From IMG/VR virus record IMGVR_UViG_3300001598_001658, positions 64,001 to 128,000 of that record: a DNA stretch of 64,000 nucleotides. One strand, given 5' to 3'. A model generated the notes under the pieces. It was not told the DNA's origin, did not search any database, and saw only the letters and a program-made list of their open reading frames with translations. The position numbers were made by a program, and so were the translations under genes. Positions 28,301-60,510 of the stretch are shown here, in pieces. This DNA comes from a virus. Taxonomy: Duplodnaviria; Caudoviricetes. Position 1 is the stretch's first letter, and every line of letters starts with the position of its first letter.

Positions 28301-31300
28301 ACATTATTATTAAGCTCTTCTCTCTTATCACTAATCTCTTTATTTATTCTTTTATATTCTTTTTTATTTTGACGCGAAATTGATCCATTTTTTGTATCAT
28401 TATCCATTTCATTAAATGAATATTCTTCGTTAACATCAAATGCATGTTTAGTTTTTTCTGTATAATATTCATCTCGATCATTTATATTTTCAATTTCACT
28501 ATTTATTTTAATCCGATTATTATGAAATCTACTATTGTTATCTCTTGCAAGACGATTATTTGATTTTAAATAAGTAGATACTTCATTTATATTTTTATAT
28601 TTTCCATCAATTACTTTAATACCTATATCTTTTATTAATTTTTTATCATCTGAATCCAAATTACCAATTTTACCATAATAAATATCGGTTTCTTCATCTA
28701 ATGAATCGACAATCATACCACCATTTTTAATAATATCTCGAGTTATTAAAAGCTTTGTTTTATCATCTAATGGTTCAAACCATACAGGATCAAGATATAC
28801 ATAAGCTCGTCCGTCGCCGCTTATATTGTTTAAAGTAGTACCTATTTTACTATATAAATCGCTACCCATAATCTGTTGTAAATATGTACCATTCTTTTTT
28901 ATCGATTCTTGTTTATCATATTTTTTCTTAATTTCTTTTTCTCGTTTTTTAGAAACAACAACATCTAATTTTTTAGATCCTTTTTCTGATATATCCTGTA
29001 TACTTTCTACGAGACTAGAAATAGACGATTGTTTTTCTTTTGATTTATTTTTCTTTTTACCAGAAATGGCGTTTTCAACATCTTTAAGCGTATCAACTCT
29101 AAGTGCTTTTCGTTTTTTAGCCTCTTCTAATGCTTCTTTTGTAATATCTTTAGAAACTCCACCATTATTTAAATAATCCTCAGTAGCTTCTTTACCTATA
29201 ATGCCATTCATTAACGATTCAAATGGATTCATTATTGCATTTGCAACATTATCAAATCCGATAAGATATCTCATTTTACCCATCATCGAATCGTCATCTG
29301 CTCCCATAAAATTATAAGAACGTCTGCGTTTTTCATCTTCTTCGGCTATAAGTCTAGAATTTTCAGAATTGCTTTTTCTGAGTTCTATTATATCATTTTC
29401 TTTTTTCTTTTTTTCTTCTTCAGTTTTATCTTTATATTTTTTATAATCCAAAGAAGTAACGCCAAGTTCATTGATTCTTCTATTATAATCTTTTAAATTT
29501 GTCTCAGGTGTTATAGGATAAACCTTTATACCATTTAATAGAAGATCATATATATTGTCAATACTACTTTTGACATTATCAGAAATTGAACCTACACTCG
29601 AATTTATATTTTGTGGTAATAAATCAACTTTTCCTACACGTTCACCATACATCGATTGTTCTGCAAGCAATTTATTTCGTCTAGCTGTCATTTTATTATA
29701 TTCATTTTTACCGGCTAAATCTTCATTATATTTAGATGAATATTGTAAATCGTAATCAATTTTTTCCCACTTTTCTTTTTCTTGCATTTCGGAAATAACA
29801 CTTTTATTTCCGAATTTAACCATAGATTCTTTAAATTGTTTAGATGTACTTTCGATTTCAGATGCAACTTTTAATATACTATTATTGATATCTCTTAAGT
29901 CACCAGGGGATAATGAAGAAATAGATTCTGCGATTAAATCTTTTATAGATTCTGTTTGTTCTCTATCTTCACCAATAGCTTCAAAACCTCTAAACATCTT
30001 ATCTCTATATTCTTTATTTTTAAATAATTCTATAGGATTAAGTTCTATTTTGGATTGGATTAAATTTTCTTTAAATTTATCCATCGCTTTCTGTATTTGT
30101 CTTTCATCAATATCAAAATTAGAATATTTATTATCATTTATTAATTTTCCACCAGTACCTTCTATAATAGACATACCTTTAGAAAATTTAACATTTCCAT
30201 TAATTACATTTTCGCGTATCTGATCATATTTTTCACTAATGCTTTTTTGTGTTTCGAATCTATGTGAATCATAATTATAATATTGAATTTCGCTTCCATT
30301 TAATGCATTTAAAATTTGAGCCAAATATCCAGGTATCGTTTCGGTAATGGTTTCTTTTGTTTTGCCGTCAAAAACTGTTTGTTGATCTAAGTCTGTCGTT
30401 GTAAGATCTATATTTTTATCGATAGCAGTATCCTGACCTAATAAATTTCCCATAAAACTTAAGAAACTATTATCACTATCTTTAAGTCTATTCATTTTAC
30501 TTACAATAGTGCCACCGATATTTCCATATAAATCATTTAATCGGCCTAATTTATTTTTAGTTTCGCTACCCAATAAATTATTGAATACAAAACTTTTAGC
30601 CATACTTCTTCCAATATCTAATGGATTTAATTTAAGTCCAGAATCTTTACCGATCATACCGGCCATACCAGACATCATATCATATGTCTGACCTAACTGC
30701 GTATTGGAAAACATATTCATTGCATTTTCTTTAATTTGTTTAGCATATTTATCCATACTAAATGAACCAATTCCACCAAACAAATTTAAATCTTCATTTT
30801 CTTCTAATTCAGCAAGTTCTTCTTCCGATTTAATACCTATTGCTCTATTATTAGCAGCTAAGATATCTTTTAATAAAGCACGCTGATCTGTTAAAAATGC
30901 TAAAGATTTGCTATCGTATTCGAGTTGAGCATTGATATTAGTTTTTCCATAATGCTCTAAGAAATCAGATAATCCATATATATTATTTGATATATTTGAT
31001 AAGATAGCAATAATATCTTTGAAATTAGAATTATCAATGTGTGTTTTTGTCTCAAAAAGTTTTTTATTATTTGAATTGATAGATGCTGTAGATGTTTCTT
31101 GTAATGCAGCATTTGCAGCTATATCACTTTCATCATTTGATTGATTCACTATGATAAGATTATTTTTGCGTCTAGGTCTTTTATAATTAAAAGACGTAGT
31201 CATTGATCCACTTGTATCTTCTTCTGTGGACTCTCCGACGTTCTCTTCATCATCATCATCCAAAAAAGCATCCATATCAATTTTAATATCTCTATTTGAG

Positions 31301-35024: not shown

Positions 35025-35235
35025 TTTTATTTTCCTCCATTTAGGATTATGCGTGCATTTCGTTATAAAATTTTATATATTAAGTGCAAGTTAATATTTT
35101 AAACTTTAAACTTATTATAATGTTATTTAAAAGTATTATCAACTTATATAAAATATATATTATATTTTGAAGTGGGTGGGAACAATAATGTATGCACACT
35201 TCAAAATCTAAAATAGCTTAATAAAGGAGAAAAAA

Positions 35236-57193: not shown

Positions 57194-57955
57194 ATGGAGA
57201 GCGCTATGGTTACGATGAATTTATTATTATTTCATCTAAAAGATGAATTGGGTGAGCCAATTTATAATACACAGAAACCAAGCTTCTACGAAGATATCTT
57301 AAATAAAAAAACTTTATTATTCTGGAGTACATATTTTCCAAAGATTGTAAAAGGAATTGAAATCAAACAAGAAGATGCTATTCCTTTAAAGAATCCTCAA
57401 ACTGGAACTATGTGTACTTCTGGAATGTATAAAGTACCTAAATTTAATCCTAATGACGAATATATAAATTTTGAACAGGTTTTTTATCCTGGAAATTTAA
57501 ATATGAATCAAGCTAGTAGTAATCTACCAGCTTTAAATGGTTTGTTAGGTCAAGTATCCGATTATCTACCAAATTCACAATATTATGGAGTTGATAGATA
57601 CAGTTTTTCTTTTATGGCTCCTGATATTTTAACAATCGATCCTATACCGATGAAACATTTAAATTTCACAGTAAATATGCAAAGACTTGTTAGATTAACA
57701 GAAGTTCCTACATATTATTTCGAACCTTTTAAAAATCTCTTTTTAGCTGATTGTAAAATTTCTTTATATAATAAATATAAACACATCTCTGAAGGTGGTA
57801 CTACTACTTATCAGGGTGTTGAAATTACAACAGAACTTCTTTCTAGTCTTAAAGAAGGAAAAGACGAACGAAAGGAATCGATAGAATTATTTGAAAAGAA
57901 TTACTGGAAAGATGCTAGTAGATTTGGTTCATTTCTTAATTATGATGCACCTTAA
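57194..57955 (+). CDS. putative head-completion / neck protein
   Basis: Co-transcribed with the protease; TL..WSTYFP and FKNLFLADCK patterns loosely resemble neck proteins. Confidence 0.4.
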   Translation: MESAMVTMNLLLFHLKDELGEPIYNTQKPSFYEDILNKKTLLFWSTYFPKIVKGIEIKQEDAIPLKNPQTGTMCTSGMYKVPKFNPNDEYINFEQVFYPGNLNMNQASSNLPALNGLLGQVSDYLPNSQYYGVDRYSFSFMAPDILTIDPIPMKHLNFTVNMQRLVRLTEVPTYYFEPFKNLFLADCKISLYNKYKHISEGGTTTYQGVEITTELLSSLKEGKDERKESIELFEKNYWKDASRFGSFLNYDAP

Positions 57956-57960
57956 AAATA

Positions 57961-57996
57961 AAAAAAAGAAACTCCGGAGATATTCTCCGGAGTTTC
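57961..57996. terminator. terminator ending the minus-strand RNA cluster
   Basis: GAAACTCCGGAGA / TCTCCGGAGTTTC with a long A-run on the left (U-tract on the minus strand). Confidence 0.8.
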
Positions 57997-58000
57997 AAAT

Positions 58001-58460
58001 TTGTCTAGTTCTCGTATAGACACTGATCAATCAGAAATGCAGGCTGTCGAGGAATCTACCTATATGGTAGCCCTTGCAGAAGTTCCGACTTACAATCCAA
58101 AACCAGACGCATTCCTCCTCTTCATTTTCTTATTCGCGATCGAGCCTCACCGCGCTCATAGGAATGCTGATTATTTATTTCTACTCCCTCAAGTATTCTA
58201 TTTTCATAGCTTACTTAATATCTCTGTAGAAACTAACTGAATTCTACTTTCAAATGGATGGACTACGTTCCACTTTACTATTTCGAAGATTCTCAACGCA
58301 TGCGAATTCTGCTACATACGTACATTATCAGCTGTCGCTGAATCTTATAAGGAATAATATAAACATTTGGGTCACTAATTTACTCGCCTCGTATAATTAA
58401 CTCAGATTCATTGCTAATCATATAAAGTTTTCTAAAAGCCTTCTTCTGTTCCCATATTTG
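58001..58460 (-). ncRNA. large structured ncRNA candidate (possibly ROOL/GOLLD-class)
   Basis: No credible ORF, raised GC, many helices (TGAATCT/AGATTCA, GTAGAA/TTCTAC, GCATTCCT/AGGAATGC, CTACC/GGTAG, TGTCTA/TAGACA); downstream of tRNAs. Confidence 0.55.
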
Positions 58461-58494
58461 TCATTAAAATTAGATAAAGATAAAAATCGATATA

Positions 58495-58845
58495 AATATC
58501 AACGTTCATCTCTAGTCCGTCTAATTAATACTTGTCCGACATCAACAGAAGTATCGATGTCCTTAATCATAAAGTGCTTACCCAATGGCATCACATTCCT
58601 TATGATAAGACTATTTGACGACAATAGCGCTGTTTCGAGCATGGTGCACTCCACCACAATCCATTCGAGTTGAAACAATTTAAAAATCATCTCTTTTAAC
58701 ACATCTCGTGATCTCGTTGTTTTCAGAGAATTGCTCGTTTCTCTATTACACCTTTTTACCACTTGATTCTTATGAACAGTCCAACGAACATAAGCAGGAC
58801 AACTATTGTGTGTAATACAAATCCCATCTAGCAGTGCCAGATGAT
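58495..58845 (-). ncRNA. structured ncRNA candidate (separate RNA or 5' domain of the preceding one)
   Basis: Helices CATCTGGC/GCTAGATG, TATTACAC/GTGTAATA, CTTATG/CATAAG, AGAGAA/TTCTCT, ATCATAAGG/CTTTATGAT, GACATCGATA/TGTTGATGTC. Confidence 0.55.
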
Positions 58846-58848
58846 TAG

Positions 58849-58919
58849 CTCGGCCAGCAGGATTTGAACCCGCGAATTCGGCACCAAAAGCCGATGGCAT
58901 ACCGCTTACCGACAGCCGA
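58849..58919 (-). tRNA. tRNA-Gln (UUG)
   Basis: Cloverleaf with anticodon arm TCGGC-TTTTGGT-GCCGA and T-arm GCGGG-TTCAAAT-CCTGC; no encoded CCA. Confidence 0.9.
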
Positions 58920-58932
58920 AAAAATAAAAAGC

Positions 58933-59015
58933 GAAGAGATAGCCGTTAAAAGAAGTCTACATCGTTTATTGCCTCCAAGAGCGTAACTACTCCTGTGTTT
59001 AATAACTATCTCTTC
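58933..59015 (-). ncRNA. stem-closed small RNA candidate (83 nt)
   Basis: Terminal stem GAAGAGATAG/CTATCTCTTC extendable with G-U pairs on the minus strand. Confidence 0.55.
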
Positions 59016-59034
59016 TAGCAGCAACGCTGCCTAT

Positions 59035-59158
59035 CGGCCACTGTACGAATTGAACGCACACTTTTATATGCAAACAGGGCTTAAAGATTACAACAGATAC
59101 AGTAGAAGTATCTCTCTTAGTTTGCACATAATGTAGCTACCATTACTACCAAAAGGCC
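59035..59158 (-). ncRNA. tRNA-like RNA with a greatly extended anticodon arm (124 nt)
   Basis: Acceptor GGCCTTT/AGTGGCC, D-arm GTAG-TAATGGTAG-CTAC and T-arm GTGCG-TTCAATT-CGTAC; a 68-nt arm replaces the 17-nt anticodon arm. Confidence 0.75.
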
Positions 59159-59170
59159 AAAAATAAAATA

Positions 59171-59243
59171 TGAATCGGATAACCGGAAAATCAAAACCAA
59201 ATTTATATAGGAGTCTAAATGACAAAGTTAGCTATCCGATTCA
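59171..59243 (-). ncRNA. stem-closed small RNA candidate (73 nt)
   Basis: Terminal stem TGAATCGGATA/TATCCGATTCA, extended by 3 pairs on the minus strand; U-rich loop. Confidence 0.55.
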
Positions 59244-59247
59244 AATA

Positions 59248-59320
59248 TGGGCCACCTAGGATTTGAACCTAGGACCAAAGGATTATGAGTCCCCTGCTCT
59301 AACCACTGAGCTAGTGGCCC
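59248..59320 (-). tRNA. tRNA-Ile2 (CAU, lysidine-type); Met not fully excluded
   Basis: GGGCCACTAGCTCAGTGGTTAGAGCAGGGGACTCATAATCC... closely resembles bacterial ileX-type tRNAs. Confidence 0.85.
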
Positions 59321-59325
59321 AAGAA

Positions 59326-59450
59326 ATGACAGCCTTGACATATTGTCTTCATCTGTCTGTAACCCCCGGAAAAGCGACACGATCGCATATACATCGAATG
59401 CATATTGGTTATTCCTAGTTCTTGTATACATCCACGTGCAATCATGTCAT
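59326..59450 (-). ncRNA. multi-branched small RNA candidate (125 nt)
   Basis: Closing stem ATGACA/TGTCAT; inner hairpins ATATGCAT/ATGTATAT and GCGA/TCGC within GGAA/TTCC. Confidence 0.45.
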
Positions 59451-59502
59451 ATACTACTATGCTCCAAATTCTTTTGAAGAGATTTATGTTGCATCGCATA
59501 GA

Positions 59503-59589
59503 TGCCGAGAACCAGACTTGAACTGGCACGCTGTTTGCACAGCAAGGGATTTTAAGTCCCTGGTGTCTACCAAATTCCACCATCTCGGC
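59503..59589 (-). tRNA. tRNA-Leu (UAA)
   Basis: Class II cloverleaf with anticodon arm AGGGA-CTTAAAA-TCCCT and long variable arm GCTGT-GCAA-ACAGC. Confidence 0.95.
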
Positions 59590-59606
59590 TCAATTTTATT
59601 TTTTAA

Positions 59607-59650
59607 ATAAAAGGACAAGGAACACAGGAGGTTATGCGTATTCCTTGCCC
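59607..59650 (-). terminator. terminator-like hairpin with a 12-nt loop after the HU-like gene
   Basis: GGGCAAGGAATAC-GCATAACCTCCT-GTGTTCCTTGTCC-TTTTATTT on the minus strand. Confidence 0.65.
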
Positions 59651-59682
59651 AAAGGAGTATTTAATGGAATGTTAGAAGATCA

Positions 59683-60030
59683 TTATTTGATTTCTTTTCT
59701 TTCACATTTAAAACCAGTATTGGCGATTGCGACGAATTCCTGACGTGGTGTCATATGAACACCAATTGATGCAGATACTTCGTATTTGCGGCCCTTTTCA
59801 TCTGTTTCTGTGTGAGCACCGAGATGCTTAAGTACAGTTGCACAGTGTGGATTTTTGATAACCAGTACATCATTTTCTTTAAGGTTTGGGGCTTCTTCTT
59901 TTGCAATGTCATCAGTGACTTTATTGAGCGCATTCAATACTTCCTGAGATGTGCTCTTAGGAATACCACAGTCTTTTTCAATTCTTTCATTAACCGAAGT
60001 CCAGTTAATTGTCTTTACATTTTCAGCCAT
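59683..60030 (-). CDS. HU/IHF-like DNA-binding protein
   Basis: ERIEKDCGIPKSTSQEVLNAL helices, beta-arm AHTETDEKGRKYEVSA and terminal HMTPRQEFVAIAN; GAGGAGG RBS. Confidence 0.65.
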   Translation of the reverse strand: MAENVKTINWTSVNERIEKDCGIPKSTSQEVLNALNKVTDDIAKEEAPNLKENDVLVIKNPHCATVLKHLGAHTETDEKGRKYEVSASIGVHMTPRQEFVAIANTGFKCERKEIK

Positions 60031-60176
60031 CTTTGGGCCTCCTCTTGTTTTATTTACGATTAGGGATATTAAATGACATTCAAATCCGAAATCATATTAT
60101 TATTTTATGTAATGTATAAAATTTTATACAATCACATTCTAAGAATAATATATAGATATTAATTATCTTATTTTTT

Positions 60177-60425
60177 TTAAACAATGAATAATAAAACTCT
60201 ACCTATAAGCATTATTGCGAAAAACAAAAATGTTGCTGTTAAGAAGATACTGATTCCAAATGCTGCTGGAATACTCATTTTTCGTCTTCTTCCGGTAAAA
60301 TTTGCATTGTTTGGATTCTTAATATCGATATAAGTTTTTGTAGCTATAATACCTTTAACGATTCCAAATATGCATGCTATCATAATAGCTAAGCATACTA
60401 CCCAATTCAAAATTTCAATTATCAT
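60177..60425 (-). CDS. small two-TM membrane protein
   Basis: Two hydrophobic helices separated by a basic loop; AGGAGG RBS. Confidence 0.7.
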   Translation of the reverse strand: MIIEILNWVVCLAIMIACIFGIVKGIIATKTYIDIKNPNNANFTGRRRKMSIPAAFGISIFLTATFLFFAIMLIGRVLLFIV

Positions 60426-60510
60426 TTCAAAATCCTCCTAATGATTTTGTATCAAACTATAATATACAAATAAAATTATATTATAATTTTCAATATATAT
60501 TATTTGTTGA

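Follow-up and report, generated by a model that had tools for sequence, protein, structure and literature searches.

Three ribosome-binding-site-like strings opposite a phage tRNA cluster: one conserved spacer RNA core and two sites not shared with relatives

Why does the strand opposite a phage tRNA cluster carry three strings, each made up of a Shine-Dalgarno (SD) sequence and an ATG, that open hardly any reading frame? The window, by which we mean the whole stretch of 64,000 nucleotides that was analysed, comprises bases 64001-128000 of a 145-kb IMG/VR record (30% G+C; CheckV completeness 51%). In an earlier note on this DNA, it was proposed that the complements of the strings are displayed by small phage RNAs that occlude translation starts of host or phage mRNAs. 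All three strings are present exactly where that note had placed them, with their complements on the minus strand, which is the strand of the tRNAs, and the observation is confirmed:

59209-59221, plus strand: element 1, string AGGAGTCTAAATG
59626-59636, plus strand: element 2, string AGGAGGTTATG
59652-59666, plus strand: element 3, string AAGGAGTATTTAATG

Their frames, said to span 3-15 codons, indeed count 15, 13 and 3 codons. The third ATG also lies within the 13-codon frame, in phase, as an internal Met codon, which makes sites 2 and 3 partly dependent on each other. The three strings are different things and do not form a single system. We give a probability of about one half to the reading in which element 1 is the conserved core of a spacer RNA, here called type A, that pairs with start regions, and elements 2 and 3 belong to a terminator-like hairpin and a 3' UTR and are confined to this lineage. 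The earlier interpretation is in this sense partly supported, being upheld for one element of three.

The number of such strings to be expected by chance was estimated from orphan sites, defined as AGGAG-N3-10-ATG opening a frame of fewer than 40 codons. Both strands of the 145-kb record (291 kb) contain 18 of these, three of them in this cluster. Among 5000 dinucleotide shuffles, the plus strand has on average 0.15 such sites in the 1727-nt region of the cluster and 0.13 in the 512-nt stretch holding the elements; the probabilities of three or more, 0.0006 and 0.0002, respectively, are nominal, the choice being post hoc. When either strand of the 1727-nt region is allowed, P is 0.019. The clustering, though picked post hoc, is more than simple chance predicts. 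Sites 2 and 3, two further orphan SD+ATG sites within 41 nt, also have a low nominal probability, so that to call them incidental, as is done below, is a judgement rather than a demonstration.

To judge from the matches of its SbcC-like protein and from its promoter motifs, the record is that of an AR9/PBS1-like jumbo phage. The SbcC-like protein, which adjoins the region, has distant matches only, and these lead to AR9/PBS1-like jumbo phages of Bacillus, Staphylococcus and Listeria and to Yersinia phiR1-37. The AR9-type early promoter motif ATATATTAT occurs upstream of many genes in the record, and the AR9-type late motif AACA-N6-TA is also common upstream of genes; in AR9 itself, the early promoter is AAATATATATTAT-N6-G and the late promoters follow the pattern AACA-N6-TA (PMC5312081). 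A strong SD (AGGAG or GGAGG, 5-10 nt ahead of ATG) precedes about 85% of the genes, and TATAGGAG is a recurrent true gene start.

The phage collections contained no close kin. Against GenBank phages, the window DNA gave tRNA matches only and the 698-aa protein gave no protein match, and a homologue search with the 115-aa protein returned only the protein itself. IMG/VR yielded no match to the 115-aa protein, to SbcC or to an alignment of the structural protein, nor, in exact scans, to the element 2 hairpin loop or the element 1 block. Relatives were found through the 253-aa virion protein encoded just past the cluster; proteins 47-82% identical to it occur in metagenome assemblies of gut, rumen-type and other origin. 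One of the relatives, L027 (contig JAEEGK010000034.1, 279 kb), has 82% structural-protein identity to the window phage, and one of the related contigs belongs to the bin of an Anaeroplasmataceae MAG.

The elements lie in an ORF-poor region (57956-59682) without a credible ORF, which carries three tRNAs, for Leu, Met and Gln, on the minus strand. In the direction of that strand, the features are the following:

59683-60030, minus strand: 115-aa gene, upstream and co-oriented, with syntenic orthologues (114-118 aa) in all relatives
59652-59666, minus strand: element 3 as CAUUAAAUACUCCUU, in the single-stranded 3' UTR between stop codon and hairpin, its CUCCU predicted to be 79% unpaired
59613-59650, minus strand: terminator-like hairpin with element 2, 32 nt beyond the stop codon of the 115-aa gene
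59503-59589, minus strand: tRNA-Leu(UAA)
59247-59321, minus strand: tRNA-Met(CAU), directly 5' of the type A RNA
59172-59242, minus strand: type A stem-closed spacer RNA, 71 nt, with element 1 in its apical part
59190-59224, minus strand: conserved apical core UGUCA-N-ACUCCU-N-UUGAU, a motif of six loci
59035-59158, minus strand: tRNA-like RNA whose anticodon arm is extended, adjoining the type A RNA on its 3' side (fold z = -3.2)
58933-59015, minus strand: 83-nt stem-closed RNA ahead of tRNA-Gln, containing GAUGUAGACUUCUUUU; possibly a divergent type B RNA
58848-58919, minus strand: tRNA-Gln(UUG)
57954-57996, minus strand: canonical GC-rich terminator (hairpin 57996-57968 and a U-run), closing the RNA cluster at its far end

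At the gathering score, the Rfam matches are the three tRNAs only, and a search of 58400-60200 at E up to 10 gave no credible match. In the clusters of the relatives, Rfam recognized tRNAs only, with two sub-threshold matches outside the clusters; in three other loci of this genome (L022-L024), it recognized tRNAs and a single sub-threshold match to a miRNA family.

The relatives keep the gene order protease, virion protein, convergent 114-118-aa gene, ~80-aa gene and SbcC. The non-coding stretch from the virion gene to the 114-aa gene measures 45-66 nt in L014/L036, L017, L019 and L025, about 0.5-1 kb in L012 and L015, and 1.4-2.8 kb in the window, L002, L004, L009, L027, L029 and L030. Relatives with a short stretch (53-66% structural-protein identity) have no cluster and one canonical terminator directly after the 114-118-aa gene. 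Since a like terminator stands at the far end of the cluster in the window, the cluster is an insert between the 115-aa gene and its terminator. The insert is co-oriented with this gene and placed before the terminator, which supports transcription of the whole cluster from the minus strand. An AR9-type early-promoter-like motif is found at 60152 (minus strand), upstream of the 115-aa gene; a scan for sigma-70 promoters and terminators remained at chance level and was uninformative. The tRNA content varies among relatives. The spacer parts that can be aligned by BLAST are a D-arm block, the 25-nt element 1 block (L009) and parts of 58107-58666 (L029/L030); the remaining spacers are not alignable with those of the relatives by this method, even with L027 at 82% protein identity.

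Several observations concern the other RNAs of the cluster. The tRNA-like RNA (59035-59158, minus strand) has normal acceptor, D and T arms and a 12-bp anticodon stem around 44 non-conserved nt. Its D-arm block of about 25 nt is conserved in L004, L002, L029 and L030: L004 has a tRNA-like RNA of the same design with a 9-bp stem, L029 and L030 share the block and its position, and in L002 the homologous D-arm is part of an 83-nt tRNA-Thr call. The stretch of about 850 nt that lies 3' of tRNA-Gln (58000-58847, minus strand) has neither an ORF nor an Rfam match; parts of it are conserved in L029 and L030 (66% over 250-300 nt, 89% over 45 nt), and it probably represents a further structured RNA encoded in the operon. 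At 58976-58999, the minus strand carries AACACAGGAGUAG, which fits the AR9 late pattern AACA-N6-TA, a short pattern that occurs here at about chance frequency. The 83-nt RNA contains GGAGG-N9-AUG-UAG on the minus strand.

The type A RNA of the window folds with an MFE of -19.6 to -22 kcal/mol (z = -4.9) and has a closing stem of 13-14 bp with two G.U pairs, as against a weaker fold of the plus strand (-13.1 kcal/mol, z = -2.2). Its core consists of these parts:

59224-59220, minus strand: UGUCA
59221-59219, minus strand: CAU (anti-AUG)
59214-59209, minus strand: ACUCCU
59194-59190, minus strand: UUGAU

By BLAST, the window and L009 have one non-tRNA block in common, 25 nt at 96% identity and centred on ACUCCUAUAUAAAUUUG, and motif searches located UGUCA-N8-16-ACUCCU-N10-25-UUGAU also in L002, L027, L029 and L030. 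These are six homologous spacer RNAs from five lineages, stem-closed, 71-142 nt in length and with the motif always in the apical part:

59172-59242 in the window: type A RNA
2852-2992 in L009: type A RNA
8198-8331 in L002: type A RNA
6037-6178 in L027: type A RNA
6843-6966 in L029: type A RNA
5842-5964 in L030: type A RNA

All members fold with z = -3.9 to -4.9. The closing stems are unrelated in sequence among the window, L009, L002 and the L027 group; in the 25-bp stem of L027/L029/L030, three pairs are compensatory and several G.U pairs are invariant. Together with the weaker plus-strand fold, the G.U pairs and the compensatory changes identify type A as an RNA of the minus (tRNA) strand. 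MAFFT/RNAalifold gave no consensus structure for all six RNAs because the stems cannot be aligned by sequence, and the three alignable members give a supported stem. The neighbours of every member are tRNAs, tRNA-like genes or minihelices of acceptor and T-arm. In the relatives, minihelices of this kind, consisting of acceptor stem and T-arm (the "top halves" of tRNAs), stand just ahead of type A, at the place where the window has a full tRNA-Met:

8318-8357 in L002, minus strand: minihelix
2985-3022 in L009, minus strand: minihelix
~6965-7000 in L029, minus strand: minihelix

In the MAFFT alignment of the six RNAs, ACUCCU is the only invariant block and the only invariant interior hexamer, an invariance that is partly a matter of ascertainment, since several members were found by a CUCCU search and independent homology applies to the pair window/L009 (BLAST) and the trio L027/L029/L030 (stems) only. 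For the four RNAs examined (window, L009, L002 and the type B RNA of L004), the predicted unpaired fraction of the hexamer is 64-90%. All six type A RNAs have a start-codon complement 3-7 nt upstream of the hexamer, CAU in five and CAA in L009, and the sequence of the spacer in between varies. A scan of IMG/VR with the pattern ACTCCTATATAAA-N-TTTTGAT gave four matches, none with UGUCA, a neighbouring tRNA or a type A-like fold, and hence no additional members. A reading of element 1 as a promoter was rejected: neither an AR9-type early (TATATTAT) nor a late (AACA-N6-TR) motif is at or near it on either strand, and the spacing of 12 nt between TTGTCA and TATAAA is too short for a sigma-70 promoter.

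Alternatively, it might be the plus strand that works, the SD+ATG strings starting micro-ORFs (10-41 codons, beginning with M-T in type A) or loading ribosomes on an antisense transcript. TATATAGGAG-N-ATG is a typical true gene start of this phage, AGGAGT is followed at 3-7 nt by ATG or TTG in 6/6 type A loci, and (A/T)TGACA is conserved, with an upstream ATG in frame with it in L027, L029 and L030. However, the peptides of 10-41 codons share nothing except M-T, which makes a conserved peptide unlikely, and the frames run antisense through tRNAs. Between 57800 and 59700, the plus strand has no AR9-type early or late motif; its sole early-type motifs (60094-60497) lie beyond the cluster. Furthermore, G.U pairs and compensatory changes assign the structure to the minus strand, and the type B RNAs of the clade, described below, are SD mirrors without a start codon. 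A function of the plus strand is therefore very improbable in our view, and we return to the minus-strand RNAs.

Element 2 forms part of a hairpin of 13-14 bp with two G.U pairs (MFE -20.4 kcal/mol, z = -4.8), and the G.U pairs assign it to the minus strand. In its loop GCAUAACCUCCU (59637-59626), CCUCC is predicted to be 99% unpaired, and the U-tract UUUUAUUU follows directly 3' of the hairpin, at 59612-59605. The earlier note had placed two of the strings in loops. This is correct for element 2; element 1 is apical but, by prediction, only partly exposed, its CUCCU being 64% unpaired and the neighbouring AGACU and GUCA paired. The element 2 hairpin has what characterizes intrinsic (Rho-independent) terminators and 3'-end-protecting hairpins, namely a stable GC-containing stem, a direct U-tract and a location downstream of a stop codon, and operons of AR9 end at predicted terminators (PMC5312081). 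It differs from intrinsic terminators in two respects. The loop has 10-12 nt and not the usual 3-8, on account of which a simple consensus terminator scan gave no call, and tRNA-Leu begins only 15 nt past the U-tract, which requires a minimum of read-through. The most plausible view of the hairpin is that of a structure between mRNA and tRNA that resembles a terminator or protects the 3' end.

At neither of the positions of elements 2 and 3 does any relative, L027 included, have CUCCU or CCUCC. Plus-strand SD+ATG strings number one in L002 and none in the other syntenic regions checked. Every cluster-bearing relative has some hairpin right after the 114-aa gene, with unrelated sequences and loops; L027 has an ordinary small-loop terminator at the position of element 2, and L012 and L015 share a hairpin without a U-run. 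The hairpin also gave no match to the covariance model of the type C hairpins (R1, eight members) at E up to 10 with the filters off. The loop conservation in related phages that had been named as a check is thus seen for element 1, whose ACUCCU core is invariant in six RNAs, and fails for elements 2 and 3. The latter are specific to this phage. Their presence is most likely incidental, and if it is not, they would be no more than a recent acquisition of this lineage; their lack of conservation has removed the three-seed system from the proposed explanation. A pairing of the element 2 loop with the 83-nt RNA was considered as well and rejected: the duplex of -20.7 kcal/mol is equalled by 16.5% of shuffled queries and is at chance level.

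One could still suppose that all three sites are working seeds against start regions, one of the RNAs being a small RNA derived from the 3' UTR (59682-59605) that offers one seed in a single-stranded part and another in a loop, and that they occlude host or phage starts. Their clustering is unlikely by chance, and all of their CUCCU/CCUCC motifs are predicted to be 64-99% unpaired. Moreover, small RNAs derived from 3' UTRs are usually built as a seed followed by a hairpin and a U-tail, an arrangement that is also found here. The absence of elements 2 and 3 from all relatives speaks against this possibility, as do the ordinary terminator or unrelated loop in the corresponding hairpin of the relatives, the failure of the flanks to add target specificity and the fact that the element 2 hairpin does not belong to the type C family. 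We consider it improbable that all three are functional.

Exposed CUCC motifs are found in two other hairpin families of the clade. Type B is GAUGUAG(G)UCUCCUUGU in a stem-closed hairpin just ahead of a tRNA-like gene or tRNA-Met, in L004, L027, L029 and L030; it mirrors an SD and lacks a start-codon complement. The 83-nt RNA of the window may be a divergent copy of it, with CUCC changed to CUUC. In type C, a stem of 9-14 bp varies freely and the loop keeps UCCCCUCCCACCC next to the 3' arm. Type C hairpins occur in L004, L007, L026, L027, L029, L030 and L031 and also in the other tRNA cluster of this genome (G000:34221), outside the window, at about window coordinate -29780:

G000:C1:34206-34238 (L023 407-439), plus strand: type C hairpin upstream of tRNA-Asn and tRNA-Lys

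Among eight in-register members, 100% of the cells are paired and 8/9 pairs are compensatory, that is, changed on both sides. On four of five measures, including the percentage paired and the covariation score, none of 500 shuffles reaches the observed value, and on the fifth, the pairs changed on both sides, 18/500 do so; the arms of the alignment were picked by complementarity, which favours the covariation result somewhat. An exact scan of IMG/VR with the type C loop gave 112 matches, six of them in hairpin loops and four of these on AT-rich phage contigs (L065, L080, L103 and L134); the motif is also present on L139, a contig with 44% GC. In three of the four AT-rich contigs (L080, L103 and L134), the early-promoter-like TATATTAT stands just upstream. 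The strong covariation and the lack of an Rfam match make type C a candidate for a new family of phage small RNAs. With types B and C at hand, a role of exposed CUCC motifs in this clade gains plausibility, but elements 2 and 3 are not rescued by them. In the window itself, the type C model scores weakly (18.5 bits, E ~0.14) at 35155-35193 (minus strand), in a divergent intergenic region; the 10-bp hairpin there, UUUUGAAGUG...CACUUCAAAA with a loop that ends in GUUCCCACC, may be a degenerate relative of type C or a product of chance.

No specific target emerged among the start regions. When each element was compared by RNAduplex with 128 start regions of the phage, the best and top-ten energies were no better than those of flank-shuffled queries that keep CUCCU (shuffled-query fractions 0.20, 0.53 and 0.47), in a search that covered a record 51% complete. 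Within 4-13 kb of each relative, no orthologous gene was consistently the best partner. As the flanks add nothing beyond the CUCCU core, anti-SD pairing is generic as far as is visible, and since TATAGGAG is a common gene start, the ACUCCU core mirrors start regions of the phage itself. An RNA that pairs in this generic way would not spare the strong SDs of the phage genes, and this counts against the proposal. Of the attributes of a base-pairing small RNA, type A has a conserved seed that is predicted to be single-stranded; a specific target that is conserved or co-varies with it did not appear in these searches.

The core could thus have been kept for another purpose, such as protein binding, processing or stability of the precursor, or a tertiary contact, with its likeness to an anti-SD being incidental and elements 2 and 3 being due to chance. 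This fits with the outcome of the target search. UGUCA and UUGAU are co-conserved and can form a 4-bp helix, suggesting a defined local fold instead of a free seed, and CUCCU occurs in the clusters of the relatives at about chance frequency, roughly one per 1.5 kb. In addition, RNA C and RNA D of phage T4 are stable RNAs of a tRNA cluster without a known regulatory role (PMC3014915). On the other hand, three separate conserved hairpin families of the clade share an unpaired CUCC core, and in 6/6 type A RNAs the start-codon complement is kept at SD-like spacing despite differing spacers. Such another role for the core is possible but doubtful.

In the favoured reading, with element 1 as a core that pairs with start regions, the type A RNA would be transcribed on the tRNA strand within a 1.7-kb tRNA/ncRNA operon. 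Because it is flanked by tRNA or tRNA-like units, RNase Z and RNase P would probably cut it out to give an RNA of ~88 nt (~59246-59159) with a U-rich 3' tail. ACUCCU and the nearby start-codon complement would most likely pair with AGGAGU-type SD regions of mRNAs, phage genes starting with UAUAGGAG, among them G000 29795-30448 and window 60177-60425, being the obvious candidate targets, and such pairing may lower the translation or the stability of the target mRNA.

There are precedents for individual parts of this scheme. The hairpins of Staphylococcus aureus RNAIII, RsaE and Bacillus subtilis RoxS resemble type A in having an exposed and conserved pyrimidine-rich motif, located in a hairpin or an apical loop, that is complementary to the SD core. 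They are regulatory RNAs of Firmicutes with pyrimidine- or C-rich loops, in AT-rich hosts with strong SDs. Each is encoded on the chromosome as a separate gene that has its own promoter and terminator, and their targets are proven. Type A, in contrast, is phage-encoded, located between tRNAs, without sequence similarity to these RNAs and without an Rfam match. As to the genomic setting, RNA C and RNA D of T4 are small structured RNAs that are co-transcribed with the phage tRNAs and cut out by tRNA processing (PMC3014915). They share the tRNA-cluster setting with type A, a comparison made by description only. To our knowledge, RNA C and RNA D do not display anti-SD motifs.

It is also possible to speculate on a broader role. 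This clade of AR9-like gut jumbo phages might make small RNAs of types A, B and C, from tRNA clusters as well as from stand-alone early genes, the CUCC loops of which reprogramme translation broadly; we judge this rather improbable. If true, these RNAs would pair with SD regions and, for example, shut off host or early-phage mRNAs, and the two extra sites in the 3' UTR hairpin region would represent a newly recruited member of the system. It would be an RNA-based counterpart of RegB, the endoribonuclease of T4 that inactivates mRNAs through the GGAG of their SD sequence (PMC3014915). RegB is a protein nuclease, whereas an RNA that displays CUCC could reach the same end by pairing, so that the analogy is one of logic only. 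Regulatory small RNAs of lytic phages are barely known, and the clade supplies a conserved and testable spacer RNA, probably released by tRNA processing, in which the anti-SD is the sole invariant interior hexamer.

Finally, another part of this genome, outside the window, may encode an RNA of a different kind. At ~59510-60415 of G000:C1 (plus strand; L022 1010-1915), about 900 nt are free of ORFs and richer in G+C. The stretch starts after the early-promoter-like AAATTTATATTATTATTTG, ends at a GC hairpin with a T-run and has no Rfam match at E up to 1. It contains GNRA-type hairpins (CCCGAAAGGG) and is a candidate for a large structured phage RNA.
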